Shown here piece by piece: positions 16,230-46,775 of a stretch of DNA of 56,485 nt. How positions within the stretch are numbered: position 1 is the stretch's first letter; every line of letters starts with the position of its first letter. Under the pieces are notes generated by a model that saw only the letters and a program-made list of their open reading frames with translations, was not told the origin of the DNA and did not search any database. The stretch is from assembly GCA_014905635.1 (NCBI GenBank), contig JABVCE010000036.1, forward strand, positions 248,001-304,485. The letters run 5' to 3'. The DNA is from Scenedesmus sp. PABB004 (taxonomy: Eukaryota). The position numbers were made by a program, and so were the translations under genes.

Positions 16230-16295
16230 AAGGGCAATTGGGGGGGGGGGGGGGGGGGCAGCAGTGCGAGCCGCATGGGAGCCCGGTAGACACCG

Positions 16296-16493
16296 CCACG
16301 GGCTGCGCCGCCGAGGTCGGCCGCCGGCGGCCGCGCCGCGCCGCGGGCCGCGCGCCGCCCGCGCGCGCGCCGCTCGCCGGCGCCGCGGCGCGGCGATGCC
16401 GTGCGCCGTTTCCTTTGCCCCGCCGCCCCTGCGGAGCGGAGGTGCGCGGCTCCAACAGGCTGCCCGGCCACGGGCTGCGCCACCGAGGTCGGC
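16296..16493. repeat. ~172-bp satellite, first segment
   Basis: CCACGGGCTGCGCC recurs at 16296 and 16468 (172 bp apart). Same monomer as 54751-56485. Confidence 0.9.
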
Positions 16494-17043
16494 TGTCAGC
16501 ACCGATGGGGGCTGCTGCCCGATGGAGGCTAGGCCTGGGGCCGGCCGGACTGAGCACTGGTGGGCTTGCATGCGCGCGCAGCAGCGGGGTCACCGGGGCA
16601 TGTACTGCAGCGCGGGTGACCGCGCACGGCAGCGACCGTGCTCTCTGCTGTGTGTGGCGGGGCCTAGTCTGAGGCCTTTTGTGCAGCGGCAGGCGCCATT
16701 GCAAGGCGTGCTGGCCGAGTGGGGGTTACACACCGATTCGCAACCAGTGCGACCTTGCTGACGGGGCAGGGTTCGCCCTTGGCTGCGCGCCCGCTGAGTG
16801 AACTTAGGCGCGCCCCGCGAGGGACGAGCGCCCCCCCAGAACCCAGTCGAGCACCAGCCAACGGTAACCACCGCGCCCGACAGTCCCAGCCGCACGCCGC
16901 GAGCGGGCAGAGGTCGACGCGAGCACTGGGCACGCCACAGGGGGAGCCAGCAAGCAAAGGAAGCGATCGCGACCGCGGCGCGCCAGAGCAGAGTGCTGGG
17001 TCGGGCAGCCGACCGCGAGCATCCCGGGTGGGGCAATCCCTGT
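16494..17043 (+). repeat. Terminal repeat A1 (550 bp)
   Basis: Identical by eye to 28237-28786. Confidence 0.92.
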
Positions 17044-17053
17044 TCTGGGGGGG
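17042..17053 (+). other. Putative self-priming primer-binding site (Tf1-type)
   Basis: GTTCTGGGGGGG is the exact reverse complement of CCCCCCCAGAAC at 16831-16842 inside A1. No tRNA-type PBS seen. Confidence 0.7.
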
Positions 17054-17214
17054 GCCGCTGCTCAGGTAAGCGCCGCGCCGCGCGGCGCATTGCGCTCGGG
17101 GGAGAGCAAGGAGGGCGCAGGAGCGCCCAGCCAGGCCGGGCGACAAGCCGTCGAGCCGCACGTGGCGGCCGACGTGGATCGCCCGACCAACACGTGAGGA
17201 GACGCCCAAAGGGC

Positions 17215-17470
17215 GCGGGAGCTAGCTCGAGCCCACAGGGCCGAGCGGAGCGGAGCCAGCTCGAGCCCAGAGGGCCGAGCGGAGCAGGAGCCAGCTCGAG
17301 CCCACAGGGCCGAGCGGAGCGGAGCCAGCTCGAGCCCACAGGGCCGAGCGGAGCAGGAGCCAGCTCGAGCCCACAGGGCCGAGCGGAGCGGAGCCAGCTC
17401 GAGCCCACAGGGCCGAGCGGAGCAGGAGCCAGCTCGCGCCCAGAGGGCCGAGCGGAGCAGGAGCACAGCG
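17215..17470. repeat. Tandem repeat of alternating 34/35-bp units (69-bp dimer) in the Gypsy leader
   Basis: GAGCCAGCTCGAGCCCACAGGGCCGAGCGGAGC(A)G repeated about 7 times. Confidence 0.85.
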
Positions 17471-17734
17471 CCCAGAGGGCGCGCGAACCGGCCAGGCGCC
17501 GTGCCCAAAGGGAACAAGGGAGCCGCGCACCGCGCCCAGCCCACGGAGCCAAGGCCACAGGCCCCGCCTGGGAGAAGCCCAAGGGGCCGCAAAGCCGGAA
17601 CAAGCGGCCCAGAGGGCCAGGAGCCTGCCCACCGTGGCCACCGCTGAGCCCCGCAAGGAGGCCCAGCGCAATCACCCACGGACCCCGCCGCAGAGAGCGG
17701 CAGCGACTGCGGCAGCGACAGCGACGAGGACGAC

Positions 17735-20700
17735 ATGCTGCGCAACTTCAGCAGCTACGGCCAGCTCGGGCGCGGCAGCCCGCCGCGCGGGCCGCGCTTC
17801 AGCGCCCGCAAGCTGGCGGGCAGCCACAACGGTGAGCAGCTCTGGGCGGGGCAGCCGGGCAAGCCGGCGCAGCAGTGGATCAACGAGGCGCGGGCGGCGA
17901 TCGGCGCCGCGCACAGCAAGAGCACGCAGAGCGGGCGCGCCGTGATGTCGCTCGCGGAGTTCGTGGACCAGCTGCTGGTGAAGGTCGAGCCGGAGAGCGA
18001 GCCCGCCCAGGTGCTCCTCAAGATCCGCGCGGCGCTCGCCGACCACGGCCTGGCGGCAGAGAACGGGCGCTACCTCTGGGCGCGCCCCTCTGCCGAGGAG
18101 GTGCGGCTGGCGCTCGGCCCGAGACAGGACCAGGAGCGGCACAACAAGATGCTGCACGAGGCCTACACAGACCGCGTCGGGGACGTCCTCGACAAGGCGC
18201 TGGAGCGGGGCCTCGTGGTCAGCCAGATGGAGATGGACCAGGTGCGAATGGGCGACGTCCCGCCCATCAGGCCGACGGGCGTCCAGGAGCTCAAGGCCAG
18301 CGCGACCGTCATCTACACCACCACGGGCGACCAGCCCGGCAAGCGCTGGACGCCAGTGCTGTACGTGGTGGAGCGGCTGCTGCTGATCATGGAGCTGCGC
18401 TTCTGCATCGCCACGCAGGAGCAGGTGAGCGAGTTCTTCACCATGCAGCAGGGCGACGCCACGCTGCAGGAGTACGCGCAGCGGATCCGGCAGGCCGTCC
18501 GGACGCTGCGCTGCGAGCTGCACATCATGCCCGACAGCGCGGCGCAGGTGTTCATCGCAGGGCTGAGCAGCGGCGCCTGCAGGGCCATGGTGCAGCAGCA
18601 GGTGATCGCGCAGGGCCTGGGCAGCCTGACGCTGGACAACGTGCTGGAGTGCGCGGAGAAGCACCAGGCAGTCACGCAGTCCACGCTGCGCGCCAGCCTC
18701 TTCCGCAAGGCGGGGCACGATTTCCTCGGCTCCATGGACGCCAAGGTGCAGGGCAGCAAGGAGCGCGGCGGCGGCTCGCGCGAGGTGCAGGGCCCAAGGC
18801 AGGTGGGAGATCGGCGCGGCGCAGGGCAGCGCCCGGGCAACTGGGCCGCCAGCGCGCCGCACCACGCCCTGGCGGGCGCTGCCTTCGCGAGCCAGGACGT
18901 GCGCGCTGACATGCCCTACAGCGCGCCCGCAGGCGCCTACGCCGACGGCTACGACACGCGGCAGTCGTACTACGGCTACAGCCAGCCGCGCGGCCACCAC
19001 CACTGGCAGCAGGCGCGGCCGATGCAGCCGGCGGGCGCGGCGCAGCAGCGCGCGCTGCCGCCGCCAGAGCTGCGCCCGCACACGAGCGGTGGCACCAACC
19101 GCGCGCCCGCGCCCTGCCCCTACTGCCGCTTTGGGCCAGGCCACGCAGTCTGCTGGTACGACCAGCCCAACAAGGCGCCTGCCAACTGGGCGCCTGGCAG
19201 GAACGCTGAGCCCGGCGCGGTGCAGCACTACCTCAGGCGCTGCAAGGAGCTGAAGATCCAGCCGGCCTGGTCTGGTGAGAGCGGCGCGCGGGGCTCCACG
19301 CCCGCGCAGCACCAGCGCCAGCAGCAGGCGCGCGGGCCAGTCGCCGCGGCGGCCCTCTGGCCCGAGTATGAGACCCCGCTGCTGCACCAGCCGCAGGGCA
19401 GCGAGCGCTGGGAGAACAGCAGCCTGAGCAACTGGCAGCACATGCCGGCGGGCTCGCTCTGCGAGATCGGTGAGCACTCGCTGAGCGCAGGCGCGGCCAC
19501 GCGCGGCGCGCGCAGGAGCGTGATGCCCTGCAGCTTCCTGCCGGCGGACAACGCGCAGCCGCGCACGGCGCCGCCGCTGAGCAGCGGCATGGAGCCGGCC
19601 CTGAGCAGGCCGTCTGCCGAACCGGTGCCGCCGCAGTTCAAGGTCAAGATCGTGTTTGAGAGCGAGAAGCCGCTGGCAGCCAGCCAGCTGGGCAAGATCC
19701 AGGAGATGATGCAGGGCCAGGAGATGGAGAACAGCCAGCCGCGCGCAGCAGCGACCAACGCGCCCGTGGCGCTGGCGCAGCTGGCTGAGGATGGCAGAAG
19801 CGCGCAGGCGCTGGAGGAGCTGCACGCCGTCGCAGGCAGCAGCACGAGCTTTGAGCAGCAGATGGCAGCGTTCAAGCGCAGCACAGGGCAGCGCCAGACG
19901 ATGATCAAGTTTGATGGCCCGCAGCTTCCCATGGTGCGCACCAGCGGCGGGCGCGTGATGCAGATGCAGAACACCGCCACCGACTCTGGCTGCGTCCCCT
20001 CTATCATCAACCAGCGCCTGGCGCAGGAGATGGGCCTGCACGTGTACCGGCTGCTGCCGGAGCAGCTGCCACCAGTCAGCACGATCGAGGGCCAGCCCAC
20101 GACCAGCATCATCGGCCGCACTGAGCCGGTGGCGGTCATCCTGGGCCACGGCACCGAGGACGAGGTCAGCCTGGAGCTGCCAGACGGCTTCCTGGTCGTG
20201 GACAGCCCAAGCGCGTACGGCATGTACGGCGCTGTGCTGGGGCGGGACATCATCGACAAAGTGAGCGGCTTCGTGCTGCCGTTCAACAGCCAGTTCTACT
20301 ACATCAGCGGGCGCCCGGCCACCAACGGGGCGAAGCTCGCCTGCATGCAGGTGCGGCTCACCGCGCGCAGCGAGCCGGCGGAACGCACGCCCGCCGCATG
20401 CACGGAGCCGATGCCGGCCTGCACGCTGCGCGCAGAGGAGAACGAGGGCGAGGAGCAGGGCCACGCCAAAAGCGAGCCCAGCTGCAGCTGGCTGCAGCGC
20501 GCGCTCAAGGCGCTGAACACCGCGCGGGACGCGCTGCTGGTGCTGCTGGTGCTGCCGGTCCTGATGCTCCTCAGCCAGGCGCCCCTCATCAGCGCGGGCG
20601 CGGTGCTCGCGCTGGGCGTGGTGGGCCAGGGCGCGGAGGAGGCCTACGCCAGCGCCACCAAGCTCCTGAGCCACACCTGGCACCGGCCCCGCCCTGCGCC

Positions 20701-21295
20701 CAGACTGCCGCTGATCTACACGGCAGTGCGCAGCATCCTCCACAAGGTGGGCTGGCTCTGCGCAGCCGCGCTCTGGGTGCCGCGCGTTCTCGCGTGCTGC
20801 CTGAGCAGCGGGCTGCGAGCCCGGCTGAGCGGCACCTGGCGCCACGTGCGCGCAGGGCTGAAGCAGCACGTGCCCTGGGCGCGCGCACCAGACCTCTACG
20901 TGCGCATCGGGCGCTGGCGCTACCGTTCTATGGAGACGGGCGATGTGCGCTGCCTCAGGCCGCCCATCGCGCCTGACGGCACAGAGTGCAATGCGCCGAG
21001 AAAGTTCAAGATGTGGCGTCGCACCTTCACGCGCGGCTTTGTGCGTAAGGCGCTGCCCCTGCAGTGCGCGCTGCTGCTGCTGCTGATCGCCGGCGCTGCG
21101 GCCACGGGGCACGCCGCTGGCCAGCTCAGCACGCACCTGGCGCCGCCAGGCAGCAGCGCACTGCGCATGCCGTGGGCCGACACACGCGCGCCACTGCCGC
21201 CCTCGCACGCAGAGGCGCAGGCGCAGGCATGGGGAGCAGCACAGCAGCTGCAAACCAACAGCTTTCGCGTCGGCGGCAGGCAGCCGCAGGCGTGA
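17735..21295 (+). CDS. gag: Gypsy ORF1: Gag (capsid plus Cys/His motif), aspartic protease and hydrophobic C-terminal extension
   Basis: Gag-like FTMQQGDATLQEYAQRIRQ...QVFIAGL, CPYCRFGPGHAVC, protease ATDSGC (~19980) and later AVLGRD. Confidence 0.8.
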   Translation: MLRNFSSYGQLGRGSPPRGPRFSARKLAGSHNGEQLWAGQPGKPAQQWINEARAAIGAAHSKSTQSGRAVMSLAEFVDQLLVKVEPESEPAQVLLKIRAALADHGLAAENGRYLWARPSAEEVRLALGPRQDQERHNKMLHEAYTDRVGDVLDKALERGLVVSQMEMDQVRMGDVPPIRPTGVQELKASATVIYTTTGDQPGKRWTPVLYVVERLLLIMELRFCIATQEQVSEFFTMQQGDATLQEYAQRIRQAVRTLRCELHIMPDSAAQVFIAGLSSGACRAMVQQQVIAQGLGSLTLDNVLECAEKHQAVTQSTLRASLFRKAGHDFLGSMDAKVQGSKERGGGSREVQGPRQVGDRRGAGQRPGNWAASAPHHALAGAAFASQDVRADMPYSAPAGAYADGYDTRQSYYGYSQPRGHHHWQQARPMQPAGAAQQRALPPPELRPHTSGGTNRAPAPCPYCRFGPGHAVCWYDQPNKAPANWAPGRNAEPGAVQHYLRRCKELKIQPAWSGESGARGSTPAQHQRQQQARGPVAAAALWPEYETPLLHQPQGSERWENSSLSNWQHMPAGSLCEIGEHSLSAGAATRGARRSVMPCSFLPADNAQPRTAPPLSSGMEPALSRPSAEPVPPQFKVKIVFESEKPLAASQLGKIQEMMQGQEMENSQPRAAATNAPVALAQLAEDGRSAQALEELHAVAGSSTSFEQQMAAFKRSTGQRQTMIKFDGPQLPMVRTSGGRVMQMQNTATDSGCVPSIINQRLAQEMGLHVYRLLPEQLPPVSTIEGQPTTSIIGRTEPVAVILGHGTEDEVSLELPDGFLVVDSPSAYGMYGAVLGRDIIDKVSGFVLPFNSQFYYISGRPATNGAKLACMQVRLTARSEPAERTPAACTEPMPACTLRAEENEGEEQGHAKSEPSCSWLQRALKALNTARDALLVLLVLPVLMLLSQAPLISAGAVLALGVVGQGAEEAYASATKLLSHTWHRPRPAPRLPLIYTAVRSILHKVGWLCAAALWVPRVLACCLSSGLRARLSGTWRHVRAGLKQHVPWARAPDLYVRIGRWRYRSMETGDVRCLRPPIAPDGTECNAPRKFKMWRRTFTRGFVRKALPLQCALLLLLIAGAAATGHAAGQLSTHLAPPGSSALRMPWADTRAPLPPSHAEAQAQAWGAAQQLQTNSFRVGGRQPQA

Positions 21296-21476
21296 GAGCC
21301 AGAGGGGCAAGGATCGGGACCCTGCAGCAGCGGCGATTGGCCAGACGCCGCTGGAGGCGTACACTGCGGGAGGGGAGCAGGAGACAGAGGAGCTCTCTGA
21401 CCGCTGGGAACAGGACCCAGAGCACAAATGGATACATGGGAACCACCCAGAGCTCACAGCAGAGCAGAAAGAGCAG

Positions 21477-24400
21477 TTGCAGCAGGTGCTGCTCGAGCAC
21501 AAAGATGTGTTCGCGTATGAGATGAAGGACTTGGTGGGCTACAAGGGCGAGCTGGGCCCTGCGCAGCTGCGCATGAAGACAGAGGAGCCCATCATCTGCC
21601 CGGAGCGCAAGCCCAGCCCCAGGGACCTGGACATTGGAAGGGAGAAAGTGCGGGAGATGCTTGACGCGGGCGTGATCCGCGAGGTCAGCACACATGGCAT
21701 GACACATGCCTGCCCCATCGTCATGGCGGCGAAGCGAGCGCCTGATGGCACCCTCACTGACAAGAGGTTCTGCTACGATGGGCGGGCGATCAACGCCAAC
21801 GCCGTGATTGACAAGTACAAACTGCCTCTGCCAGAGGAGCTGTTCCGGCGAATGGCAGGTGCTACGTGGCGCAGCAAAGTCGACTGCAGGTCCGGGTTTT
21901 TCAACATCCCGCTGGATGAGGCGTCACAGCGCTACGCGTGCTTCTGGTGGGAAGGCAGGCTGTACAGCTTCACGCGCCTGCCCTTTGGGCACGTGAACGC
22001 CACCGCCATCTTCCAGAGAATAATGGAACACGAACTGCGCGCAGCAGGGCTCAAAGACTTTGCTGTGGTCTTTGTGGATGACATATGTATCTACACTAAG
22101 ACATTTGAGGACCACCTGAGGTGCCTGCGCCTGCTGTTTGGCCGTTTCCGGACGGTCGGGCTGCGCGCGCATCCATCCAAAACGGTGCTGTGCAGCGACT
22201 CCATGCCCTTCCTGGGCCACCTGGTCAGTGAGAGTGGCATGCAGCCTGACCAGGCGAAGGTCGCCGCAATGCGCGAGCTGGCGCCGCCAACCTCGGCTGA
22301 TCAAGTGCGCAGCTACCTGGGCGTGCTGGGCTTTTATCGCTGCTATGTGCCTGAGTACTCGGCTATTGCGGCGCCTCTCAACGCACTGCTCAAGAAAGGC
22401 ACGCGCTTCGTGTGGGGACCAGAGCAGGCGGCTGCCTTTGACAGGCTGCGCGATGCGCTCACCTCACCCACTGCGGTGCTGCGCCACCCAGACCCCTCAC
22501 GGCCATACCACCTGTATACGGACTGGAGCCCTCACGGCATCTCTGCCGTGCTCAACCAGAGAGACCAGAACGGGGGGGAGTACATGGTCGCCTGTGCCTC
22601 TCGCTCGCTCAACGAGCACGAGCGGCGGTACGAGGCCTGGAAAGGTGAGGCGCTGGCGGCAGTATGGGGCGTCAAGACGTTCCGCCCATACCTGCAGGGG
22701 CCCCACTTCCACCTGCACACCGACCACCGCCCGCTGCTCTGGCTACTCGCAGCCAAGGAGCCCACAGGGCAGCACGCGCGCTGGGTGCTGTCGCTGCAGG
22801 ACTACGAGTTCACCCTGGTCCACAAGGCCGGCAAAAGCAACGTGGCAGATGTGCCAAGCAGGCACCCACGAGCCACAACGGTGGACGCGGCAGGTGCGCG
22901 CTTGGACCGCACAAGGGAGCCCATGTATCAGCTGCAGCCGGCAGTGCTGCAGGCTGATGGCACGCCGGACACGACGGAGTACACGTGGGAGCTCCTGGAG
23001 CAGCAGCGCGCAGCGGCCAAGCCGCAGAACAGCACCGCGGCAGGGGCGCTGCTGCTGGGCACAGCCCTGGCGCCGCCCAGCCAGCCGCAGCTGCAGGCAC
23101 AGCTTCTGGAGCGCGCGACGGCTGGTGAGACCCGGCTTGACTCTCTCCTGCCCGACGCCGCCGCGTTGCTGGCAGGCAATAACGGCTCCTTCACAGACGC
23201 GGCGGACCAACTGCCGGATGACGCCTCCTACGCGGCCCAGCTGGCAGCAAGGCAACTGGCGCGCTCGGCGCGCGCATGGGTGCAAGCGGCGGTGCCACAC
23301 CTGCCGGCAGCACAGGCTCAAGCCGCCGCGCCCGCGGGAGGTGCGCACGCGGGGCCGCGTGATGCATTTGGGGTGCGCCGGGCCACAGGTCTGGCCACCG
23401 CCAGCGTGGCGGCGAGTTTCTTTCCGGCAGCGACGCAAGGCCTGGTCCTTGTGGACGCGTTTGGGGGGTTGTGTGCGGGCCTGGAGATGGCCCTGCGTGG
23501 AGGGAAACGCATCCACAAGTACCTGTATGTGGACATCAACCCCACCAGCCGGGCGATAGCAGCGCACAGAGTGCAGCAGCTAACAGCGCTGTATCCTGAC
23601 CTGCTGCCCACGTCTGCCCTGCAGGGCATGTTCTCTCTCCCGCAAGACGTGCGCGAGATCACGACATGGCACCTGGTGCAAGAAGGAGCATCGCTGCAAC
23701 GCCAACCCTGGCTCGTGGTGGGCGGATGGCCCTGCCAGGACCTCAGCACAGCTGGGTCGGGTGCGGGCCTGCGCGGGGCGCGATCAGGCCTGCTCACCGA
23801 GATTGTGCGCCTGATCGGCACGCTGCAGCAGCTGCAACCAGACCAGCCGCCCTGCTACCTGCTGGAGAACGTGCCAGTGCAATGGCACAGCGACAACCGC
23901 ATTGCGGAGGAGGACTTCAAAGTGATTTGTGACGCGCTGGGCCAGCCGACAGTGCTGGACGCAGCGCAGTTTGGGAGCCGCGCGCACCGCGTGCGAGCGT
24001 TTTGGACGAACGCATGCTCACCTGCCCAACTGGCCGCTGCTGCGGCGCAGGTGCAGAGGCCGCCGGGCCTCACGGTCTCACAAATACTGGAGCCTGGGCG
24101 GCGGGAGCAGCCGGTCAAGCACCCTGATTTCCCACCACGCTACCCCTGCAATGTGCCAGGGCAGCCCATGGCAGCCTGGCCAACGCTGATGGCGCACCCC
24201 AACAGCTACAGCTTCAGGCCAGGCAAGCCGGGCAGCGTGATCGCAGCAGACGGCACGTGGGACCAGCCCCTGACAGTCGAGCCTGAGCGCGCGCTCGGCT
24301 ATGCGGAGGGCGCAACAGCCGCGCCTGGCGTGTCGGACAGAGATCGCCGCCGTGCCCTGGGCGAGGCGATCGATGCAGCCTGCCTGGCGGGACTCTGGGC

Positions 24401-26393
24401 GATTGCCCAGGCCTGGGCGGAGCATGGCAGCACACAACCAGTGGCAGGACTTGTGCCCGAGATGGGAGCCAGCAAGGCTGCTGGGAGCAAGCCGTACGGC
24501 GTGCTATGTGCGCTGGCGGCAGCAGCGGAGCAGGACGCCCTGCAGGGCAGCAGCAGTGACATCTGGGCCGACGCAACCGCCCTGCACCTGCTGCAGAACG
24601 GAGACTTCCCAGCGGGCACAAACGCGGCTGAGCGCAGCAGAGTGGCCAAGCGCCGCGCGTACTACCGCTGGCAGGGCGGGCAGTTGCTGCGACTCATGCC
24701 CGACAACAGCACGCGTGTGGTGCCCCCTCCGGCTGAACGGCGGGAGCTGCTCAAGAGCTTCCACGACAGGTGCGGGCACTTTGGCGTGCGCCGCACTGCG
24801 GCACTCGCGCACCACACGCACTGGTGGCACGGCCTGCTGGCCGACGCGGCTTCGCTGGTGGGCGGCTGCCCTGAGTGCGGGCAGGTCCGCGCAGCTTTTA
24901 CAGCGCGCCCAGCTGAGCTGCAGCCGCTGCCCATCCGCGGCATGATGTACCGCTGGGGCGTGGACCTGTGCGGGCCTTTCCCGCGCTCAGAGCGGGGGCA
25001 CCGCTACATCCTGGTGTGTGTGGAGCACTTTAGTAAGAACATTGAGGCCATTCCTATTGCGGAGAAAACGCCAGAGTGCACTGCCTATGCTTTCCTGCAC
25101 AACGTGCTCGCGCGTTTTGGCGCGTGTGCCGAGGTCGTGCACGACCGCGGGGGCGAGTGGCAGGGTGCTTTCCAGCAGCTGCTGCTGGACTGCCTCATTG
25201 ACTCGCGCCCCACTTCAGCCAACCATCCCGCTGCCAATGGCGCGGCGGAGAAATCTGTTCATATTGTGAAGGCAGCCCTGGAGAAAACGTGCCTGCAGCG
25301 GCAGGCAGTGCGTGACTGGGACATGCACGTGCCCTGGCTGCTGCTGGGCTACCGCTGCAGCCCGCAGCGCAGCACCGGCCTCACGCCATATGAGCTGCTC
25401 TATGCACGCGCGCCAATTGTGCCGCCTGCAGTGATGGAGCGGCTGAGCCAGCCGCTGGACCTCGACGCACCTGACCTGGCCGCCGCCGACTTGGCCGCAC
25501 GCAGGCAGCTGGTCGAGCGCCTGGCACCTGAGGCCATGGCGAACCTGGAGATCGCGCAGCAGCGAGACACGCTGCGCTACGCGCGACTGCGAAGCGGGGA
25601 GATCCAGCCAAGAACGCCCACGTTCAAACAAGGTGATTTTGTGTATGTCGCGTACACTCACGCGTACAGCGCGCTGCAGCCACGCGCGCGCCCGGTGATT
25701 CTGCGCGTGCTGGAGGTCAGGCCCAGCGGCCGCCTCATGCTGCAGGGCCGCTGCGGACGCAAGATCGACCGCCACATTTCACAGTGTGCGCCCTGCCACT
25801 TGCCAGGGATCGACCCCACACTTGACCCAGCCCTGGCAGAGCAGCCGCAGGAGGCGAGCTGCGAGGCGTGCGGGCACCTGGAGTCACACACAGCGAACCA
25901 GATGCTGCTGTGCGATCACTGTGACGCGGGCTGGCACCAACACTGCCTGGAGCCGAGCCTGGATCAAGTGCCCGAGGGCGACTGGATGTGCCCGAGGTGC
26001 GTCGCTGACGGCGTGACGCAGCAGCAGCTGCAGGCCGCAGTGCGCCAGCGCCAGGCGCGGGAGCAGCGCGACGAGGGGGCGAACCTCTACCCAGACCGCG
26101 CAATGCGCGAGCGTGACGAGGCAGCCAAGCAGCTGCACGGCAGGCTGGTGCGCCAGCACTTTGTGGATCGGCAGACGGGCCAGCGCAGGCTCTTCTGGGG
26201 CCGCGCGCACTTCATGGGCGAGCAGCGTCGGCCGGCGTACTTTGATGTGTGCTGGGAGGATGGGGACGTGTACCGCTATGCCACAGCGGAGCTCACCAAG
26301 ATCCTCACCCCGCAGGACACGCTCCTGCCCGCAGGCGTGCGCTTGCCACGCGACGGCGCCTTTGGCGACACGACCGCAGGACCCAGCCACTGA
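21477..26393 (+). CDS. pol: Gypsy Pol: RT - RNase H - C5 cytosine methyltransferase - integrase - PHD - Tudor-like (frame open from 21087, probably reached by +1 frameshift)
   Basis: RT: RFCYDGRAIN, RLPFG, FVDDI. RNase H: LYTDWS, GEALA, TDHRPL. MTase: AFGG, GWPCQD, LENV, RVRAFW. Integrase: H-H-C-C, WGVDLCGPF, HDRGGEW, NGAAEK. PHD: CEAC..LLCDHCDAGWHQHCL..WMCPRC. Confidence 0.92.
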   Translation: MQQVLLEHKDVFAYEMKDLVGYKGELGPAQLRMKTEEPIICPERKPSPRDLDIGREKVREMLDAGVIREVSTHGMTHACPIVMAAKRAPDGTLTDKRFCYDGRAINANAVIDKYKLPLPEELFRRMAGATWRSKVDCRSGFFNIPLDEASQRYACFWWEGRLYSFTRLPFGHVNATAIFQRIMEHELRAAGLKDFAVVFVDDICIYTKTFEDHLRCLRLLFGRFRTVGLRAHPSKTVLCSDSMPFLGHLVSESGMQPDQAKVAAMRELAPPTSADQVRSYLGVLGFYRCYVPEYSAIAAPLNALLKKGTRFVWGPEQAAAFDRLRDALTSPTAVLRHPDPSRPYHLYTDWSPHGISAVLNQRDQNGGEYMVACASRSLNEHERRYEAWKGEALAAVWGVKTFRPYLQGPHFHLHTDHRPLLWLLAAKEPTGQHARWVLSLQDYEFTLVHKAGKSNVADVPSRHPRATTVDAAGARLDRTREPMYQLQPAVLQADGTPDTTEYTWELLEQQRAAAKPQNSTAAGALLLGTALAPPSQPQLQAQLLERATAGETRLDSLLPDAAALLAGNNGSFTDAADQLPDDASYAAQLAARQLARSARAWVQAAVPHLPAAQAQAAAPAGGAHAGPRDAFGVRRATGLATASVAASFFPAATQGLVLVDAFGGLCAGLEMALRGGKRIHKYLYVDINPTSRAIAAHRVQQLTALYPDLLPTSALQGMFSLPQDVREITTWHLVQEGASLQRQPWLVVGGWPCQDLSTAGSGAGLRGARSGLLTEIVRLIGTLQQLQPDQPPCYLLENVPVQWHSDNRIAEEDFKVICDALGQPTVLDAAQFGSRAHRVRAFWTNACSPAQLAAAAAQVQRPPGLTVSQILEPGRREQPVKHPDFPPRYPCNVPGQPMAAWPTLMAHPNSYSFRPGKPGSVIAADGTWDQPLTVEPERALGYAEGATAAPGVSDRDRRRALGEAIDAACLAGLWAIAQAWAEHGSTQPVAGLVPEMGASKAAGSKPYGVLCALAAAAEQDALQGSSSDIWADATALHLLQNGDFPAGTNAAERSRVAKRRAYYRWQGGQLLRLMPDNSTRVVPPPAERRELLKSFHDRCGHFGVRRTAALAHHTHWWHGLLADAASLVGGCPECGQVRAAFTARPAELQPLPIRGMMYRWGVDLCGPFPRSERGHRYILVCVEHFSKNIEAIPIAEKTPECTAYAFLHNVLARFGACAEVVHDRGGEWQGAFQQLLLDCLIDSRPTSANHPAANGAAEKSVHIVKAALEKTCLQRQAVRDWDMHVPWLLLGYRCSPQRSTGLTPYELLYARAPIVPPAVMERLSQPLDLDAPDLAAADLAARRQLVERLAPEAMANLEIAQQRDTLRYARLRSGEIQPRTPTFKQGDFVYVAYTHAYSALQPRARPVILRVLEVRPSGRLMLQGRCGRKIDRHISQCAPCHLPGIDPTLDPALAEQPQEASCEACGHLESHTANQMLLCDHCDAGWHQHCLEPSLDQVPEGDWMCPRCVADGVTQQQLQAAVRQRQAREQRDEGANLYPDRAMRERDEAAKQLHGRLVRQHFVDRQTGQRRLFWGRAHFMGEQRRPAYFDVCWEDGDVYRYATAELTKILTPQDTLLPAGVRLPRDGAFGDTTAGPSH

Positions 26394-26535
26394 TCAGGCT
26401 GATGCCGCACCGGGAGAGATGGAGGCCTGGCTGGGGGTTGGGGGGTGCTCACGCGTCAGTCCGCTGTGTGCCAAGCCGCCAAACCGGCGAGTGCTGACAC
26501 TGCCCTCCCGTGCCGACACTGCCGCTGCTCAGGCA

Positions 26536-27720
26536 ATGGAGGGTGAAGAGGAGCTGCTGGACTTTGGGGATGAGGAGATGGAGATGCCGGAAGCCGCCCC
26601 GGGGACGAGCAACGATGAGCAGCGGGGCCTGTCGGCACAGCTGCTGGCACGCCTCGGCAGCGGCGGCGATGATGGCTATGTGGCCAGCCCGGAGGCAGCG
26701 GAGGAGCCGAGCGACCGCAACTGCAGCCACAGCCAGAACAGCGGCGGGAGCTCCAAGCACACGGACCGCCCGCCACCTCAAGACGTGGGAGAGGAGCAGC
26801 CGGACCTGCAGACGTGGCGAGGCAACCGGAGCAGGAGCCGCAGCCGCAACCGCCACGGCCGGCGCCCTCACGACCCCGACCAGGGACCTGCAGAGCGCTC
26901 CGCGCGGGGGTGCAGCCCTGCGGCGCAGGGTGAGCGCTCGGGGCGCAACAGCCAGCTTGGCGCCCAGAGCCAGCAGCAGCCGTATGAGGCCAAAGCCTGG
27001 CAGCTGCTGGAGGACTACCGGGCCGGCCGGGTCAGCGGACCACAGGCCGCGCGGGAGCTGCTGGAGCAGCAGACAGGCGGCAGCTACAAGGAGCACGCCT
27101 GCTTCAAGGGCCGGCGCACCTGGTGCGAGCTGCACGGGCCCTGCGCGCATGACACAAAGGAGTGCAGCAACTGCCGTGAGATCACGTCGCGGCAGCATCG
27201 GCTTTTCAGCCAGCTCCTTTGCTTCCCAGCGGGCGTTCGGCGCTGGACGGAGCGCCCGCGGCGCAGCCAGGAGCCCAGTGGCCAGCGCCAGGGCAGACCC
27301 GCGGACCGCCAGGCGCCGCGGCGCTCTGAGCCGCAGCAGCGCGGCAGACGCGCGCAGGGCAGCCAGCCGATGGAATACGCGCAGCGCGAGCAGCAGCGGC
27401 GGCTGCAGCGTGACTTTGTCCAGAGCAGTGACCAGACGCAGCGCAGTGTGCAGAGGCAGCGTCAGGGCGGTGCGCCACCGCCGCAGCAGGTCAGCCAGCA
27501 GGAGCAGAGCAGCCAGGGGCAGAACCAGCTTGTTGCCCTGCCGGCGCAGCCCGCGCAGATGCTGCAGCTGGCGCCGCAGACGCAGGCGGCAGCACCGCAG
27601 ATGTATACGGAGGAGCAGGTGCAGCAGATGCTGCAGCAGCACAACAGTCACTTGAAGACGTTTGAGCAGATGGCCTTTGTCATGGCGAGCCAGATGTCTG
27701 AGCTCAAGAGGCTGCGCTGA
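26536..27720 (+). CDS. Gypsy ORF3, unknown function (acidic N-terminus, Cys/His knuckle-like motif, Gln-rich C-terminus)
   Basis: Open frame inside the element, likely ATG at 26536 (MEGEEELLDFGDEE). Motif WCELHGPCAHDTKECSNC. Confidence 0.6.
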   Translation: MEGEEELLDFGDEEMEMPEAAPGTSNDEQRGLSAQLLARLGSGGDDGYVASPEAAEEPSDRNCSHSQNSGGSSKHTDRPPPQDVGEEQPDLQTWRGNRSRSRSRNRHGRRPHDPDQGPAERSARGCSPAAQGERSGRNSQLGAQSQQQPYEAKAWQLLEDYRAGRVSGPQAARELLEQQTGGSYKEHACFKGRRTWCELHGPCAHDTKECSNCREITSRQHRLFSQLLCFPAGVRRWTERPRRSQEPSGQRQGRPADRQAPRRSEPQQRGRRAQGSQPMEYAQREQQRRLQRDFVQSSDQTQRSVQRQRQGGAPPPQQVSQQEQSSQGQNQLVALPAQPAQMLQLAPQTQAAAPQMYTEEQVQQMLQQHNSHLKTFEQMAFVMASQMSELKRLR

Positions 27721-28027
27721 GCAGCTGCAGTGGGGACAGTTTCGGTCGGGCGCTGCAGCCTGCCCAGCTCTGGCAGTTGGGGCAGTTGGCAACTGCAGCG
27801 AGGGATCAGGCGCGTGGGCGCGCGCATGTGCATGTGCGGGGAGCGGGTGAATCTGCCCCGCGCGGTGTGCGTGTGCCAATGCCTGGTGTGCCTGGTTCCA
27901 GCAGCGTGCGTGCCGCCGCTGCAGGGCCTTTGTCATGTGTGTGTTGTGCTCTTGGCAGCATTGCGAGCGCTGCTGCCAGCACCCGCGTTTTGAGCAATCC
28001 CGCCTCCTCACCTCGTGCGTGATTGCT

Positions 28028-28033
28028 GGGGGG
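28028..28033 (+). other. Short polypurine tract immediately before repeat B1
   Basis: GGGGGG, then T, then TGTGCAGC (start of B1). Confidence 0.5.
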
Positions 28034-28034
28034 T

Positions 28035-28234
28035 TGTGCAGCGGCTGGACTGGCCGCAGCGCTCAGGCCTGGTCACTGCGCGCACGCGCTACAGCCAGCG
28101 GGTGCGGCCTGAACTGGGCAGTTGGGGTCAACTGCCGCGTGTGTGCGCCTCGCAGGTGTGTGTTGCGTGAGGGCAGAGCAGCAGCAGCGGGGGCGCTCAG
28201 CGCTCATCCGACGGGTCGCTCATCTGGTGCGTCA
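28035..28234 (+). repeat. Repeat B1 (200 bp)
   Basis: Identical by eye to 28786-28985; separated from A2 by the dinucleotide GC. Confidence 0.92.
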
Positions 28235-28236
28235 GC

Positions 28237-28786
28237 TGTCAGCACCGATGGGGGCTGCTGCCCGATGGAGGCTAGGCCTGGGGCCGGCCGGACTGAGCAC
28301 TGGTGGGCTTGCATGCGCGCGCAGCAGCGGGGTCACCGGGGCATGTACTGCAGCGCGGGTGACCGCGCACGGCAGCGACCGTGCTCTCTGCTGTGTGTGG
28401 CGGGGCCTAGTCTGAGGCCTTTTGTGCAGCGGCAGGCGCCATTGCAAGGCGTGCTGGCCGAGTGGGGGTTACACACCGATTCGCAACCAGTGCGACCTTG
28501 CTGACGGGGCAGGGTTCGCCCTTGGCTGCGCGCCCGCTGAGTGAACTTAGGCGCGCCCCGCGAGGGACGAGCGCCCCCCCAGAACCCAGTCGAGCACCAG
28601 CCAACGGTAACCACCGCGCCCGACAGTCCCAGCCGCACGCCGCGAGCGGGCAGAGGTCGACGCGAGCACTGGGCACGCCACAGGGGGAGCCAGCAAGCAA
28701 AGGAAGCGATCGCGACCGCGGCGCGCCAGAGCAGAGTGCTGGGTCGGGCAGCCGACCGCGAGCATCCCGGGTGGGGCAATCCCTGT
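28237..28786 (+). repeat. Repeat A2 (550 bp)
   Basis: Identical by eye to 16494-17043. Confidence 0.92.
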
Positions 28787-28985
28787 GTGCAGCGGCTGGA
28801 CTGGCCGCAGCGCTCAGGCCTGGTCACTGCGCGCACGCGCTACAGCCAGCGGGTGCGGCCTGAACTGGGCAGTTGGGGTCAACTGCCGCGTGTGTGCGCC
28901 TCGCAGGTGTGTGTTGCGTGAGGGCAGAGCAGCAGCAGCGGGGGCGCTCAGCGCTCATCCGACGGGTCGCTCATCTGGTGCGTCA
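28786..28985 (+). repeat. Terminal repeat B2 (200 bp)
   Basis: Identical to B1; ends in CA next to the TSD. Confidence 0.92.
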
Positions 28986-29134
28986 CGGCCGCCGGCGGCC
29001 GCGCCGCGCCGCGGGCCGCGCGCCGCCCGCGCGCGCGCCGCTCGCCGGCGCCGCGGCGCGGCGATGCCGTGCGCCGTTTCCCCTGCCCCGCCGCCCCTGC
29101 GGAGCGGAGGTGCGCGGCTCCAACAGGCTGCCCG
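28986..29134. repeat. 172-bp satellite, continuing the monomer interrupted by the Gypsy element
   Basis: Resumes in register with 16493. Confidence 0.9.
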
Positions 29135-31086
29135 CACGCGCAGCATGGTGCGGCACCGCGGCGCGCTGTCGACAGCCTTTGAGCCGGGCCTTGGGTGGGA
29201 GCAGGGCGACACGCTGGCGACTACGATGTTCGACGTCTTCATCAACGCCGTGCTCCAGGAGGTGTGGACCGCCTGCCCGGGCGTGCCGCTGCCCGCCGCG
29301 CCCGCGCCCGCGCCCGCCGCGCCGCCCGCGCCGCCCGCCGGCGCGGCGCCACCCGCGCCCGAGCCAGGCGCCGCCGACGACAAGCTGGTCGCGCTCCTCT
29401 TTGCGGACGACTGCGCCAGCCTTGCGGCCGGCCCGGCGGAGATGCAGCAGCTCCTTGGCGCCACGCGCGCCGCGCTCGCCCGCTGGCGGCTCAAGGCCAG
29501 TGTCAGCTCGGCGGACGCGTCCAAAACAGCGGTGATGGTGGTGCCGGGGGGCCGCACCCGGCGTGCCGTCGCTGCGGCGGCTGCTGCCGCGGCGGCCTAC
29601 CAGTGGTCGTGGGGCGCGGAGCAGGTGCCGCGCGTCACTGGGTACAGGTACCTGGGCGCGTGGCTGACGGCCGACCGCAGCGCCCGCAGCTGGGACGCCC
29701 ACCTGCAGCGCCGCAAGGCTGCTGCGGACAAGGCGTTCTGGGCTCCGTCGGCGGTGCTGCGCGAGCGGCGCCTGCCGCTGCGCCTGCGCCTGCTCACGCT
29801 CACGGGCGTGGTGCAGCCTGTGTTGACGCACGCGGCCCAGGTCTGGGCCCGCCCCACGGTCGAGCGCCGCGCGGAGCTCGACTCGTGGCAGGCGGGGCTG
29901 GTGGCGCGCGCGACCGGGTGCCCGCCCAACGTGTCGCACGCGTGCCTGCAGCAGGAGCTGGGCATCACCCCGCTGCATGTCGTCTGCGACACCCTCATGC
30001 TGCGCTACTGGCACCGCCTGCGCGCCCTGCCAGCCGACCGCCTGCTGCGCCGTGTTGCCGACGCCTGGCCCGCCACGCCGTGGTGGAAGGGCGTGGGCGG
30101 CCTCCTGCGGGACTACGGCGTCGATGTTGTGGCTACTGCTGGCATGAGCCGCAACGAGTTTGCTGCTCACCTTTGCGACCTTGCTGGCGACCACATCGAT
30201 GGCGCATGGGAGGCCGCCGCCGGCCGCGGCTCGGTGGCGCGGCGCTACCGGGAGGCCTTTGGCAGCGGCGTCTTCTCTACTCGCTCCTTCACGCGCCGCG
30301 CCGGCGTGCCGTGCGCCCGGGACTACCTGGGCTGGCTTTGCAGCCCCGGCGGCCCGCGGCGCGGCCGGCCGGCGGAGCTGCTCATGCGCCTGCGCATGGA
30401 GTGCCTCCCGCTGCGCGCTGCCCACAGCCACGCGCGCCGGGGGGAGTCGATCGCGCAGCAGGCGGAGCGGGAGCGCTGCCCCTGCTGCGCGGCGCGCGCG
30501 CCCGAATCGGCCGCGCACTTTCTCTTTGAGTGCGGCGCGCCCGGCCGCCCTGCACGCCTCGTTGCGCTGCTTGCGGACCTCCGTGCCAGCGGCGGGGGCG
30601 CGCATGCTGGCGCGCTGGCTGCGCACCTGCGTGCGGCTGGTGTTGAGATGGCGGCTAGCGGCAGCCAGGAGCTGGAGGCTGGAGCTGGCGGCGGCGGCAG
30701 CGGCAGCGTCAGCGACCCCGGCGTCGTGGCTAGCGCGGCGGCCCCTCGGGCTGCTGACGCAGGCGCGGCGGTCAGCATCAGCGATAGCGGCGTCACGGCT
30801 GATACGGCGGCCCCTCGGGCTGATGATGTCAGCGCGGCGGTCAGCGTCAGCAACGTCTCTGCTGGTGCGGCGGCCCCTCGGGCTGCCGTTACCGGCGCGG
30901 CGAGTCGGTGTGCAGCACTGGAGCAGGCTCGGCGTTATCTGCTTGGTGACCTGCTGCAGGATCAGCTTGCTGTTCACTCTGTGGCAGATTATGTGATGGA
31001 CATCTGGAAGATGCGGGACACCGTCCTTAAGGGGCGCGGGACCAATGGGCGCGAGCCTGCGGTGTAACTATCTTTGTCTTTGTCTT
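29135..31086 (+). mobile_element. 5'-truncated non-LTR retrotransposon (RTE/RTEX-like): partial RT plus C-terminal Zn motif, ORF stop at 31067
   Basis: GWEQGDTLATTMF, LLFADD, YRYLGAWL, LQQELG, RCPCC...ESAAHFLFEC. 3' tail (TCTTTG)3. Probable TSD TGCCCG at 29129-29134 and 31087-31092. Confidence 0.82.
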
Positions 31087-35188: not shown

Positions 35189-35537
35189 TGTCACGATGAC
35201 CTCAGCACGTGCCTAGGCGCTTCGGTAGTCCGTAGGCGCCTGTGGGCAACCCGAGAGGGGTGCAGCGTGTGAGTTTGAGGGGCCAGCTCAAGCTCGTCTG
35301 GTGCTGCTGCGCTGCCGCACTTCTGCTGTGCGGATGCTGCGCTGGCTCAGGCAGCTGTTGGTCGCTGCGAGCTCAGGCCACAGGTAAGCTCGTGGTGCTG
35401 CCTGGCGCGAGCGCTGGGCGCTGCGTGCGCGCGCAGGGCCGGGAGTGGCCGTGCGACGCAGCTGGCCTGTACGCCAACCCGCGCTGCTGCAGCAGTGGGG
35501 TACGTGCGCGAGCAACTCAGCTGAGCGCTCGGTGCCA
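35189..35537. mobile_element. Possible solo LTR-like segment (349 bp)
   Basis: TGTCACGATG...CTCGGTGCCA termini loosely resemble the Gypsy ends. It joins a truncated Copia to a truncated L1, with no TSD. Confidence 0.3.
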
Positions 35538-39115: not shown

Positions 39116-39146
<31 letters not shown>

Positions 39147-40334: not shown

Positions 40335-40365
<31 letters not shown>

Positions 40366-41760: not shown

Positions 41761-41774
41761 CTAGCCGCCGCGCT

Positions 41775-41805
<31 letters not shown>

Positions 41806-46773: not shown

Positions 46774-46775
46774 GG

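Follow-up and report, generated by a model that had tools for sequence, protein, structure and literature searches.

The window, i.e., the whole 56,485-nt stretch of contig JABVCE010000036.1 of Scenedesmus sp. PABB004 that was analysed, contains at 16494-28985 a structurally complete, young Ty3/gypsy-type retrotransposon with a built-in methylase. The features of the locus are given below in window positions.

16490..16493, no strand: target-site duplication, left copy CGGC, 4 bp
16494..17043, + strand: terminal repeat A1, 550 bp, starts with TG, 550/550 identical to A2
17054..17070, + strand: leader, 13-nt GCCGCTGCTCAGG followed by GTAAG (5' splice-site-like CAG/GTAAG)
17218..17469, + strand: tandem repeat in the leader, 7.3 copies of a 35-bp unit (TRF, 95% matches)
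17735..21295, + strand: ORF1, gag-like; frame 17648-21295, first ATG at 17735
21087..26393, + strand: Pol frame, stop-to-stop, 1768 codons; +1 relative to ORF1, with a 209-nt overlap
21777..22805, + strand: reverse transcriptase and RNase H (RVT_1 E 4.7e-23, RT_RNaseH E 4.9e-33, RT_RNaseH_2 E 2.6e-30)
23409..24425, + strand: DNMT3-like C5 cytosine methyltransferase domain, Pol residues ~775-1113
24723..25226, + strand: integrase, H2C2 zinc-binding domain and DDE core (Integrase_H2C2 E 9.9e-12, rve E 2.1e-07)
25860..26000, + strand: PHD finger (Pfam PHD E 3.2e-09)
26130..26306, + strand: small beta-barrel, Tudor/SH3-like, conserved to the Pol end in relatives; model pLDDT >90
26536..27720, + strand: ORF3, 394 codons, Q/R/S-rich, with a Cys/His cluster
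28025..28034, + strand: G-run GCTGGGGGGT immediately upstream of B1, a putative polypurine tract judged from its sequence
28035..28234, + strand: repeat B1, 200 bp, ends with CA, 200/200 identical to B2
28237..28786, + strand: repeat A2; the dinucleotide GC (28235-28236) lies between it and B1
28786..28985, + strand: terminal repeat B2, ends with CA; the T at 28786 is assignable to A2 or B2
28986..28989, no strand: target-site duplication, right copy CGGC

When 16494-28985 is excised together with one CGGC, the satellite sequence gaggtCGGCcgccggcgg is restored, which is present intact at 16313-16330. The termini, TG (16494) and CA (28984-28985), and the 4-bp duplication fit the canonical picture of a Ty3/gypsy LTR element, but the two equal LTRs of that picture are missing: the 5' end consists of A alone and the 3' end of B-A-B. 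The repeats are laid out in a split A-internal-B-A-B arrangement with 750 of 750 repeat bases identical, and the insertion is therefore young. Despite the split repeats, the insertion is integrase-like in its TG...CA ends and its duplication. A standard two-LTR element (with an LTR of A+B or B+A and a later deletion) was also considered and rejected, as it does not account for an intact target-site duplication around an element that begins with A and finishes with B. No tRNA-complementary primer-binding site was recognisable after A1, a tRNA scan of the window returned no tRNA gene, and blastn and tblastn revealed no further copies or fragments of the element within the window. The window contains two exact occurrences of the 13-mer GCCGCTGCTCAGG (17054-17066 and 26521-26533), the expected number being 0.07; they may mark a splice from the leader (17065/17066) to ORF3 (26532/26533). 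The preliminary description had placed the insertion in satellite DNA; the element does sit in a ~171-bp satellite, which at this site is only a short patch (16267-16523 and 28935-29191), and long arrays of this satellite are found elsewhere in the window (54753-56485 and 48527-48979). No clear deamination footprint was seen in the CpG observed/expected ratio, which is 0.78-0.96 in the element, slightly below the 1.06-1.28 of the flanks; the copy is young. This copy is pristine and probably active.

ORF1 carries a Cys/His knuckle-like CX2CX5HX2C motif and a D-S-G aspartic-protease-like motif, the latter seen alone, with no Pfam protease match in this frame even at a permissive threshold. Its Pfam match to Retrotrans_gag is weak (E 0.012), and the segment at 19850-20302 aligns with the relative P0029 (28% identity, E 8e-15). 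Homology of the Pol frame to its relatives begins near 21327, and tblastn with these relatives covers 21327-26390 in a single frame. Pfam places RVT_1 at Pol residues 231-378, RT_RNaseH at 469-573, DNA_methylase at 876-973, Integrase_H2C2 at 1213-1268, rve at 1288-1380 (31.6 bits, slightly below the cut-off of 32.6) and PHD at 1592-1638, and the whole Pol order is RT - RNase H - DNMT - integrase - PHD - small barrel. The PR-RT-RH-INT order and the grouping of the RT are those of gypsy elements, with arthropod and plant-lineage gypsy Pols appearing as outgroups in the RT-region search. The element does not have the chromovirus arrangement, since Pfam finds a PHD behind the integrase and no chromodomain, and Pol, ORF1, ORF3 and other frames of the 3' region gave no Pfam match to a tyrosine recombinase (Phage_integrase). 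ORF3 is possibly not a gene: it has no Pfam match, permissive threshold included, and among the fetched proteins its sole homologue is the gene model of the locus itself. This public model (P0104, 3225 aa) joins three frames via two predicted introns; one of 112 nt might link gag to pol, as might a +1 frameshift. The genome is very GC-rich, with long chance open frames on both strands.

The central claim of the preliminary description was that a C5 cytosine DNA methyltransferase is fused in frame between RNase H and integrase, and this reading is borne out. The interval 23442-24400 (+) encodes 319 stop-free residues with all the quoted methylase motifs in the order given, and it lies inside the uninterrupted 1768-codon Pol frame. 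The HMM search that had been proposed as a check gave a match of the 319-residue piece to DNA_methylase (PF00145) at 46.8 bits (E 3.6e-12, cut-off 22), and the full Pol frame matched the same family at 43.2 bits (E 4.5e-11, cut-off 22). From the Pfam order and these scores, it follows that RNase H, methylase and integrase share one frame in this order, far above chance. The Pfam match spans motifs IV-VIII alone; motifs I-III and IX-X are backed by the alignment with DNMT3A, by conservation in the family and by a confident whole-domain fold. In Pol residues, FGG of motif I is at 792-794, PCQ at 882-884 (Cys883 being the predicted catalytic residue), ENV at 927-929 and RVR at 968-970. Pfam, motif and structure evidence agree that this retrotransposon Pol includes a C5 cytosine DNA methyltransferase domain, complete in its catalytic motifs.

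Another question is to which group of methyltransferases the domain belongs. The AlphaFold model (pLDDT 94.9, pTM 0.93) retrieved DNMT3A/B/C in all of the Foldseek matches listed (best E 5.8e-17, TM 0.79-0.84 on the target), and the VIA-align Z scores were 27.8 for DNMT3B and 27.0 for DNMT3A, followed by M.MpeI (24.3), M.HhaI (21.9), the Dnmt2 type (~20-21; EhMeth 20.9, Pmt1 20.4), DNMT1 (18.8) and DNMT5 (17.8). Against PDB sequences, phmmer found DNMT3A at E 7.8e-08 and bacterial enzymes at E 0.055 or worse. The search with the family profile returned DNMT3A (1.1e-19), DNMT3C (1.3e-16), DNMT3B (3.6e-16), tobacco DRM (6.2e-12) and M.HhaI (1.1e-07), and DNMT1 and Dnmt2 were absent among the 53 sequences at E<=0.01. 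The motif order is not rearranged, unlike that of DRM, and is colinear with DNMT3A over model residues 7-347. In sequence and predicted fold, the domain therefore appears closer to DNMT3 than to DNMT1, DNMT2, DNMT5, DRM or bacterial enzymes, in a best-hit ranking that covers solved structures only. The catalytic domains of animal DNMT3A and DNMT3B, the closest solved structures and sequences, have motifs I-X colinear with the window domain but share only 22-27% identity with it, and the window domain exceeds them by ~70 residues, most of which fall between motifs VIII and IX. At one position of motif X, Asn is found in 146 of 227 relatives and Ala in the window copy. Searches of the ESM Atlas gave generic phage-type DNA_methylase clusters only, and a complex of two copies of the domain predicted without an alignment (score 0.00, mark 0.32) is evidence neither way. 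We know of no DNMT3L-like partner for the window domain.

Behind the integrase, the nearest solved structures to the PHD finger are those of CHD4, PHF12, ATXR5, KDM5A/B PHD1, BAZ2A/B and BHC80. Its neighbours are mostly structures solved with unmodified H3 tails (BAZ2A, ORC1b, UHRF1, ATXR5 and BHC80), and by analogy with these we infer that the finger may be specific for unmodified H3. The barrel has no Pfam match, even at a permissive threshold, and its structural matches are weak (Spindlin-4, Z 5.2; SETDB1 tudor, 4.4; RDM15 tudor, 4.2). DNMT3A also combines its methylase with two readers, an ADD domain (PHD-like, reading H3K4me0) and a PWWP domain (a Royal-family barrel), which the PHD and small barrel of the window Pol parallel; in DNMT3A/DNMT3B, the readers stand in front of the methylase, whereas in the window Pol they follow the integrase.

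The relatives of the domain are numerous: 4214 representatives were found at E<=1e-3, 701 at E<=1e-10 and 290 at E<=1e-30, the last figure being a count of clusters at 50% identity. Every one of the 100 matches to the DNMT region is a long Pol-like protein (32-64% identity); Pfam domains of RT, RNase H or integrase occur in 98 and a PHD in 85. Given the 98 of 100, this architecture is a trait of the family. The named chlorophyte members are Monoraphidium, Scenedesmus, Haematococcus and Cymbomonas. The preliminary description had taken the host lineage to be chlorophyte, which the chlorophyte identity of the closest named relatives supports indirectly. In two relatives from the streptophyte Closterium (P0339 and P0343, 34% identity), the DNMT lies directly upstream of the RT and not between RNase H and integrase. 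A scan of metagenome contigs with the family profile revealed 79 loci, of which L001 and L002 stood out as likely members. L001 has the whole domain (43% identity) in a 2027-codon Pol frame, with no direct repeats around it inside the contig, and L002 is a fragment with 44% identity over residues 179-339; the remaining 77 loci show ~24-51% identity over part of the domain.

Motif conservation was counted in 227 of the 283 fetched relatives with a domain match, i.e., in those spanning the domain, and the 56 partial ones were dropped. The Cys of motif IV, the E-N of motif VI and the RxR of motif VIII are all kept in 222 of the 227. Such retention across lineages, down to ~35% identity, would be difficult to account for unless catalysis is under selection. 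The residue before the predicted catalytic Cys is Glu in 108 and Pro in 100 of the 222, and this replacement of a near-universal Pro in about half of the family marks an atypical group of enzymes. In Gonium P0262, Pleodorina P0270 and P0258 (one clade) and in P0264, the catalytic motifs are destroyed: motifs I, IV and VI are lost, and the domain is kept at the same position. In the RT tree (FastTree, 160 rows), a clade of 147 with support 100 contains 130 intact-DNMT rows and the window, and the relatives with dead motifs are derived clades inside this DNMT-bearing clade. Three rows classed as degenerate in this tree (P0099, P0281 and P0284) rest on partial DNMT matches, and the P0099 and P0281 proteins end within the domain. 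The DNMT and RT trees concur on the deepest split.

The principle of a Gypsy-borne DNMT3 is already known, having been published in 2018 (de Mendoza et al. 2018, Nat Commun 9:1341, PMC5890265), and the precedents cited in the preliminary description, Klebsormidium and dinoflagellates, are correct. KnitGypsy-Dnmt3 of Klebsormidium nitens, as presented in the available text of that paper, is a Gypsy Pol with a Dnmt3, DIRS-like repeats and a Ka/Ks <0.2. It shares with the window element an unrearranged Dnmt3-related domain inside a Gypsy-type Pol frame and, despite the Gypsy domain set, A-coding-B-A-B repeats as in DIRS; its key catalytic residues are conserved, as in the window family, and purifying selection was reported for it (PMC5890265). 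The likeness is drawn from the published description. The host of KnitGypsy-Dnmt3 is a streptophyte, whereas that of the window element is apparently a chlorophyte. The main text of the 2018 paper contains neither 'chromodomain' nor 'protease', those of its supplements that are searchable as text do not contain 'PHD', and its survey took in just five chlorophytes (PMC5890265). SymbioDIRS-Dnmt3 of Symbiodinium likewise has a Dnmt3-type domain in Pol and A-coding-B-A-B repeats, but uses a tyrosine recombinase, and SymbioLINE-Dnmt an endonuclease, according to the same text (PMC5890265), whereas the window element has a DDE integrase. In Chlamydomonas, Gypsy-7a_cRei and further Gypsy elements with a PHD carry it in Gag-Pol; they also show unusual LTR subparts, contain two ORFs and are suspected of inserting in a targeted manner (Craig et al. 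2022, PMC9940879); in the available part of that paper, no methyltransferase is reported for Gypsy-7a_cRei, and its PHD is drawn ahead of the integrase, unlike that of the window element. EpiLTRs/DAM-LTRs, as described in the accessible part of a preprint, are LTR elements of green algae and Euglena that, like the window element, carry DNA methyltransferases and chromatin readers; unlike it, they have an adenine methylase of prokaryote-like type, and in EpiLTRs the 3' end of pol encodes a DNMT4-like cytosine methylase, accompanied by a chromodomain (bioRxiv 10.64898/2026.05.21.726589). As far as their accessible text goes, papers of 2025-26, this preprint among them, still give Gypsy-DNMT3 for streptophytes only. 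No description of a chlorophyte Gypsy-DNMT3 family was found in a literature search whose scope lay outside subscription journals, theses and Repbase. We hold it close to certain that the window element belongs to a large green-algal family of the KnitGypsy-Dnmt3 kind with an intact DNMT3-type domain in Pol; the family of 290 clusters, with its named chlorophyte members, its motif retention in 222 of 227 domains and its dead volvocine copies, is apparently undescribed.

These observations raise the question of what the domain does for the element and whether it belongs to the element at all. The long chance frames yielded by a GC-rich genome and the joined frames of the public gene model might suggest that a host DNMT3 gene was broken by a retrotransposon, or that the fusion is an artefact of assembly or annotation. 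This is almost certainly not the case: a single stop-free frame runs from the RT to the PHD tail, and over 21327-26390 it aligns in the same order with relatives that come from other organisms, the DNMT-region matches are without exception long Pol-like proteins, nearly all with RT, RNase H or integrase domains, and the two trees agree at their deepest split. A true Pol domain could still act on another substrate, namely RNA (the genomic RNA or, as with Dnmt2, the primer tRNA) or single-stranded or hybrid replication intermediates instead of double-stranded DNA. Dnmt2-type enzymes share the fold at high Z, the domain adjoins RT/RNase H, and RNA methylation was raised as a possibility for the LINE-borne DNMT in the available text of de Mendoza et al. 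2018 (PMC5890265). We nevertheless regard such a substrate as very unlikely, as DNMT3A/B stand clearly above Dnmt2 both in the profile search, which returned no Dnmt2 at E<=0.01, and in structure (Z 27-28 versus ~20), and two DNMT3-type domains of SymbioDIRS-Dnmt3 are described in that text as methylating CG in DNA de novo in yeast (PMC5890265).

A more serious competitor is that the element retains the domain chiefly for a non-catalytic purpose, such as to bind DNA or to act as a scaffold or tether in the pre-integration complex, with its chemistry playing little or no role in transposition. The volvocine and other relatives that hold the domain in place without motifs I, IV and VI make a non-catalytic role possible, and their position as derived clades within the DNMT-bearing RT clade is in line with it, as is the finding that the Klebsormidium Gypsy-Dnmt3 domain produced no methylation in yeast, a result that the authors call inconclusive in the available text (PMC5890265). 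On the other side, the Cys, EN and RxR are retained in nearly all full-length domains over a wide range of divergence, and the window copy has every catalytic motif, which makes this reading unlikely. The explanation that we favour overall, and consider reasonably probable, is that of a DNMT3-type Pol module of a young Gypsy element that serves self- or target-site methylation, together with chromatin tethering.

For de novo methylation of cDNA and/or insertion-site DNA by the Pol-borne domain as the actual mode of action, we see an even chance. Under this model, the methylase domain would be made with Pol and would accompany the reverse transcriptase and integrase. It would use S-adenosylmethionine and methylate cytosines de novo, probably in CpG, with the new cDNA and/or the DNA at the insertion site as its substrate. 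The PHD and barrel behind the integrase would probably hold the complex on nucleosomes whose H3 tails are unmodified, in silent repeat-rich chromatin such as the satellite where the element landed. The element might benefit through DNA methylated in a 'self'-like manner, through settling in heterochromatin or through tempering of its own activity.

Chlorophytes are not known to have DNMT3. A far broader reading, which we consider distinctly unlikely as a whole, is that an old and very large green-algal lineage of integrase retrotransposons carries a reader-writer kit (a DNMT3-type methylase, an H3K4me0-type PHD and a Tudor-like barrel) with which it steers into silent satellite-rich chromatin and methylates itself or its landing sites, that it represents the main or only DNMT3-type activity of chlorophytes, that the capture predated or crossed the chlorophyte-streptophyte split, and that the split ends reflect a replication route distinct from those of LTR and DIRS elements. 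If this were true, the 'independent acquisition in the Klebsormidium lineage' would become one branch of an older or split-crossing capture, and the internal CA-GC-TG junction of the split-repeat ends would mark the distinct replication route.

Cytosine methylation is normally a weapon of the host against transposons. A transposon with its own de novo methylase inverts this picture of host defence. Such elements have so far been known from two lineages; to these are now added at least hundreds of diverged green-algal relatives, including the culturable Monoraphidium, Scenedesmus and Haematococcus. In such tractable algae, the activity of the enzyme, the target of methylation and the guiding or protecting of insertion become testable, and the natural 'dead-enzyme' variants of volvocine algae are built-in negative controls. 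Moreover, transposon-borne DNMT3 copies may be mistaken for host genes, which bears on algal methylomes and on DNMT gene counts.

The forward-strand sequence at 23442-24400 encodes 319 uninterrupted residues and is enclosed in a Pol frame of 1768 codons (21087-26393, stop to stop). An open frame by itself is no proof here, because the G+C content of the window (66-81%) gives chance long frames on both strands. The Pfam matches along the frame are listed below.

Pfam domains of the Pol frame (Pol residues)
231-378, forward strand, RVT_1
469-573, forward strand, RT_RNaseH
876-973, forward strand, DNA_methylase (E 4.5e-11, 43 bits against a cut-off of 22)
1213-1268, forward strand, Integrase_H2C2
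1288-1380, forward strand, rve
1592-1638, forward strand, PHD

The alignments of relatives from other organisms are colinear across 21327-26390 and stay within this single frame. The preliminary description had placed a C5 cytosine DNA methyltransferase (DNMT) in frame between RNase H and integrase, and both the domain order and the colinear relatives confirm this position; the motifs that it named are all present in the translation in the order listed, and the DNA_methylase HMM match that it proposed as a check was obtained above the cut-off. Thus, the identification of the domain was correct and the finding is real.

To which class of methylases does the domain belong? In a sequence search of solved proteins, the nearest were DNMT3A (E 7.8e-08), DNMT3C and DNMT3B, with bacterial enzymes at E 0.055 or worse. 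A family profile built from 43 members gave DNMT3A at 1.1e-19, DNMT3C at 1.3e-16, DNMT3B at 3.6e-16, tobacco DRM at 6.2e-12 and M.HhaI at 1.1e-07, and DNMT1 was absent from the 53 distinct sequences with E ≤ 0.01 in this search. An AlphaFold2 model of the domain, built with the alignment behind this profile (mean pLDDT 94.9, pTM 0.93), was compared with solved structures in two ways. Among the Foldseek matches listed, only DNMT3A/B/C chains were found (best E 5.8e-17; target-normalised TM 0.79-0.84). A ranking independent of Foldseek, in which the model was aligned against all representatives, was led by DNMT3B (Z 27.8, 279 aligned residues, rmsd 2.7) and DNMT3A (27.0), followed by M.MpeI (24.3), M.HhaI (21.9), Dnmt2 enzymes (~20-21), DNMT1 (18.8), ZMET2 (17.9) and DNMT5 (17.8). 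Because DNMT3 leads both the sequence and the structure rankings and the motif order lacks the rearrangement of DRM, the domain can be regarded as DNMT3-like, as judged by match ranking among solved proteins.

The domain belongs to a large family. A DNMT-region search confined to proteins of 972-3094 residues gave 100 matches with 32-64% identity; Pfam recognises RT, RNase H or integrase in 98 of them and a PHD in 85, and the named ones come from Monoraphidium neglectum, Scenedesmus sp. NREL 46B-D3 and Cymbomonas tetramitiformis. When 1.84 billion representatives were searched exhaustively, 4214 proteins matched with E ≤ 1e-3, of which 701 had E ≤ 1e-10 and 290 had E ≤ 1e-30, and a short-protein search added the streptophytes Closterium sp. 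NIES-65 and NIES-54. Among 283 fetched relatives with a DNMT match, 227 span the domain (the 56 partial ones were left out of the motif census), and in 222 of these 227 the catalytic Cys, motif VI E-N and motif VIII RxR are all retained. At the position preceding the catalytic Cys in the motif IV column (relatives P0004-P0346), 108 of the 222 have Glu and 100 have Pro; Glu-Cys is an unusual departure from the classical, near-universal Pro-Cys. The window's copy has Pro-Cys and all other motifs except at the motif X position, where it carries Ala and 146 of the 227 relatives carry Asn.

In the RT-RNase H search, a Haematococcus lacustris relative has an intact DNMT, while a Chara braunii relative gave no DNMT match with the family profile. 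The Gonium pectorale (P0262) and Pleodorina starrii (P0270) proteins keep a recognisable DNMT with motifs I, IV and VI destroyed, and the same was seen in the relatives P0258 and P0264; all four are thus natural "dead-enzyme" versions.

In an RT-RNase H tree (FastTree, 160 rows covering at least 420 of 521 query positions, midpoint-rooted for drawing only), the window falls within a clade of 147 rows with support of 100. An intact DNMT lies between RNase H and integrase in 130 of these; the clade also holds two small dead-domain clades, truncated proteins, and the proteins P0266 and P0269, adjoining Haematococcus, in which the DNMT is lost. The remaining 13 rows comprise gypsy elements that lack a DNMT (arthropod and unnamed) and the relatives P0102, P0298 and P0103, which bear a related DNMT upstream of RT. 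In the DNMT tree, P0102, P0298 and P0101 are separated from the rest by the deepest branch; both trees thus put P0102 and P0298 beyond their deepest branch, which holds for P0103 in the RT tree alone and for P0101 in the DNMT tree alone. In the Closterium proteins P0339 and P0343, the sole named members with this architecture, the DNMT runs straight into the RT start. There are thus at least two domain orders. In the second architecture (P0102, P0298, P0101, P0103, P0339 and P0343), the DNMT follows the protease. The streptophyte examples seen have the DNMT-upstream order, unlike the window's element.

The structure of the element carrying the domain is as follows.

Repeats and additional frames of the element
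16494-17043, repeat A1, 550 bp, identical to A2 (550/550)
17735-21295, forward strand, ORF1, with a weak Pfam gag match, a Cys/His knuckle-like motif and a D-S-G protease-like motif
26536-27720, forward strand, third frame (ORF3), 394 codons, after Pol
28035-28234, repeat B1, 200 bp, identical to B2 (200/200)
28237-28786, repeat A2, 550 bp, from direct-repeat analysis
28786-28985, repeat B2, 200 bp, from direct-repeat analysis

The layout is A1, internal region, B1, GC, A2, B2. The element is a precise, integrase-type insertion, because its ends are TG...CA, CGGC flanks it on both sides (a 4-bp duplication), and removal of the element with one CGGC restores the neighbouring monomer sequence of a ~171-bp satellite. 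The insertion is recent, since the repeats are identical at 750 of 750 bases. No second copy or fragment was found elsewhere in the window, and Pfam revealed no tyrosine recombinase in the element. A two-LTR element with an LTR of B+A would, if circularly permuted, show this split-repeat layout, which is here combined with TG...CA ends, a 4-bp duplication and a DDE integrase. Two extra bases (CA-GC-TG) lie at the internal B/A junction, which resembles a stored circle junction.

Pol is in the +1 frame relative to ORF1, with an overlap of 209 nt, and part of ORF1 is conserved with one relative. ORF3 is rich in Q/R/S, with a Cys/His cluster and a helix-like C-terminal end; it has no Pfam domain, and none of the fetched relatives has a homologue. 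In the public gene model of the locus (P0104, 3225 aa), which is 100% identical over the domain, ORF1, Pol and ORF3 are linked via two predicted introns, one of them between Pol and ORF3. The window has just two copies of the 13-mer GCCGCTGCTCAGG (expected number 0.07): at 17054-17066, directly after repeat A1, at a splice-donor-like CAG/GTAAG, and at 26521-26533, at an acceptor-like CAG/G 3 nt upstream of the ORF3 ATG. The pair may mark a leader-to-ORF3 subgenomic splice or be a priming-related duplicate. The 5' leader also contains 7.3 tandem copies of a 35-bp unit (17218-17469).

Retroelements crowd the whole window; besides the DNMT element it contains the following.

Other retroelements in the window
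33100-35046, reverse strand, Copia RT fragment
41761-47658, reverse strand, LINE-type frame of 1965 codons with endonuclease and RT
~48979-54695, frame on the reverse strand, intact-looking Copia element with a 1386-codon gag-int-RT frame and 100% identical 300-bp ends

The Copia element lies between two blocks (48527-48979 and 54753-56485) of the GC-rich ~171-bp satellite, the same one that received the DNMT element. Several retroelement families seem to use this satellite, which is possibly centromeric, as a landing pad. In region 35535-43278, pairs of 100% identical segments (300 bp at 35535 and 42354; 177 bp at 36722 and 43102) bracket four to five copies of a ~1.2-kb unit (36949-41700); this could be another element or a segmental duplication.

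Conservation of the final ~200 Pol residues reaches the relatives' stop codons, and the model of this tail (pLDDT 85.6) contains a PHD finger, a long helix and a small beta-barrel. By sequence and structure, the PHD is closest to those of CHD4, PHF12, ATXR5, KDM5A/B PHD1, BAZ2A/B, DPF2/3, BHC80 and UHRF1, and several of the nearest entries are structures with unmodified H3 tails. It lacks the Trp two before His, which is the arrangement of H3K4me3-binding PHDs. The barrel, without a Pfam match, weakly resembles Tudor-type readers (Spindlin-4, Z 5.2; SETDB1, 4.4; BAHCC1 and RDM15, 4.2).

Elements of this kind are known. De Mendoza et al. 2018 (PMC5890265) describe three groups, SymbioLINE-Dnmt, SymbioDIRS-Dnmt3 and KnitGypsy-Dnmt3. 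The last is a Gypsy element of Klebsormidium whose Pol includes a Dnmt3-related domain without introns; its repeats are arranged "the same as that of a DIRS retrotransposon", its key residues are conserved and Ka/Ks is <0.2. Methylation by KnitGypsy-Dnmt3 was not detected in yeast, which the authors judged inconclusive. Two SymbioDIRS domains showed de novo CG methylation. Like KnitGypsy-Dnmt3 as described there, our element combines a Gypsy Pol with a Dnmt3-related domain; it therefore adds a member to a known kind, and the principle is not new. The species table of that study has only five chlorophytes (Chlamydomonas, Volvox, Chlorella, Ostreococcus and Micromonas). In a 2025 eukaryotic DNMT survey (PMC12344493), TE-borne DNMT3 is cited for streptophytes and dinoflagellates only, and a 2026 preprint (10.64898/2026.05.21.726589) lists Gypsy-DNMT3 for streptophytes and describes, in elements of Cymbomonas and Euglena, another module that is DNMT4-like. 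The Chlamydomonas v6 paper (PMC9940879) gives Gypsy-7a_cRei with a PHD and without a reported methylase, and TOC1 as a non-autonomous DIRS element. Full-text searches of the literature outside subscription journals, theses and Repbase gave no description of a chlorophyte Gypsy-DNMT3 family.

The DNMT3-like domain is an intact part of Pol, with catalytic residues constant across a deep family. It would be produced together with RT and integrase and could methylate cytosines, probably CpG, on new cDNA or at the integration site, and the PHD and barrel on the integrase might anchor the complex on nucleosomes whose H3 tails are unmodified. The insertion in a satellite amid a retroelement-packed region fits this proposal. 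Gains to such an element proposed in PMC5890265 are masking of the cDNA as self, protection from editing, local chromatin shaping and self-restraint. The value of the present element lies in its pristine copy, the family's size and chlorophyte range, the natural dead-enzyme variants and the candidate reader domains.
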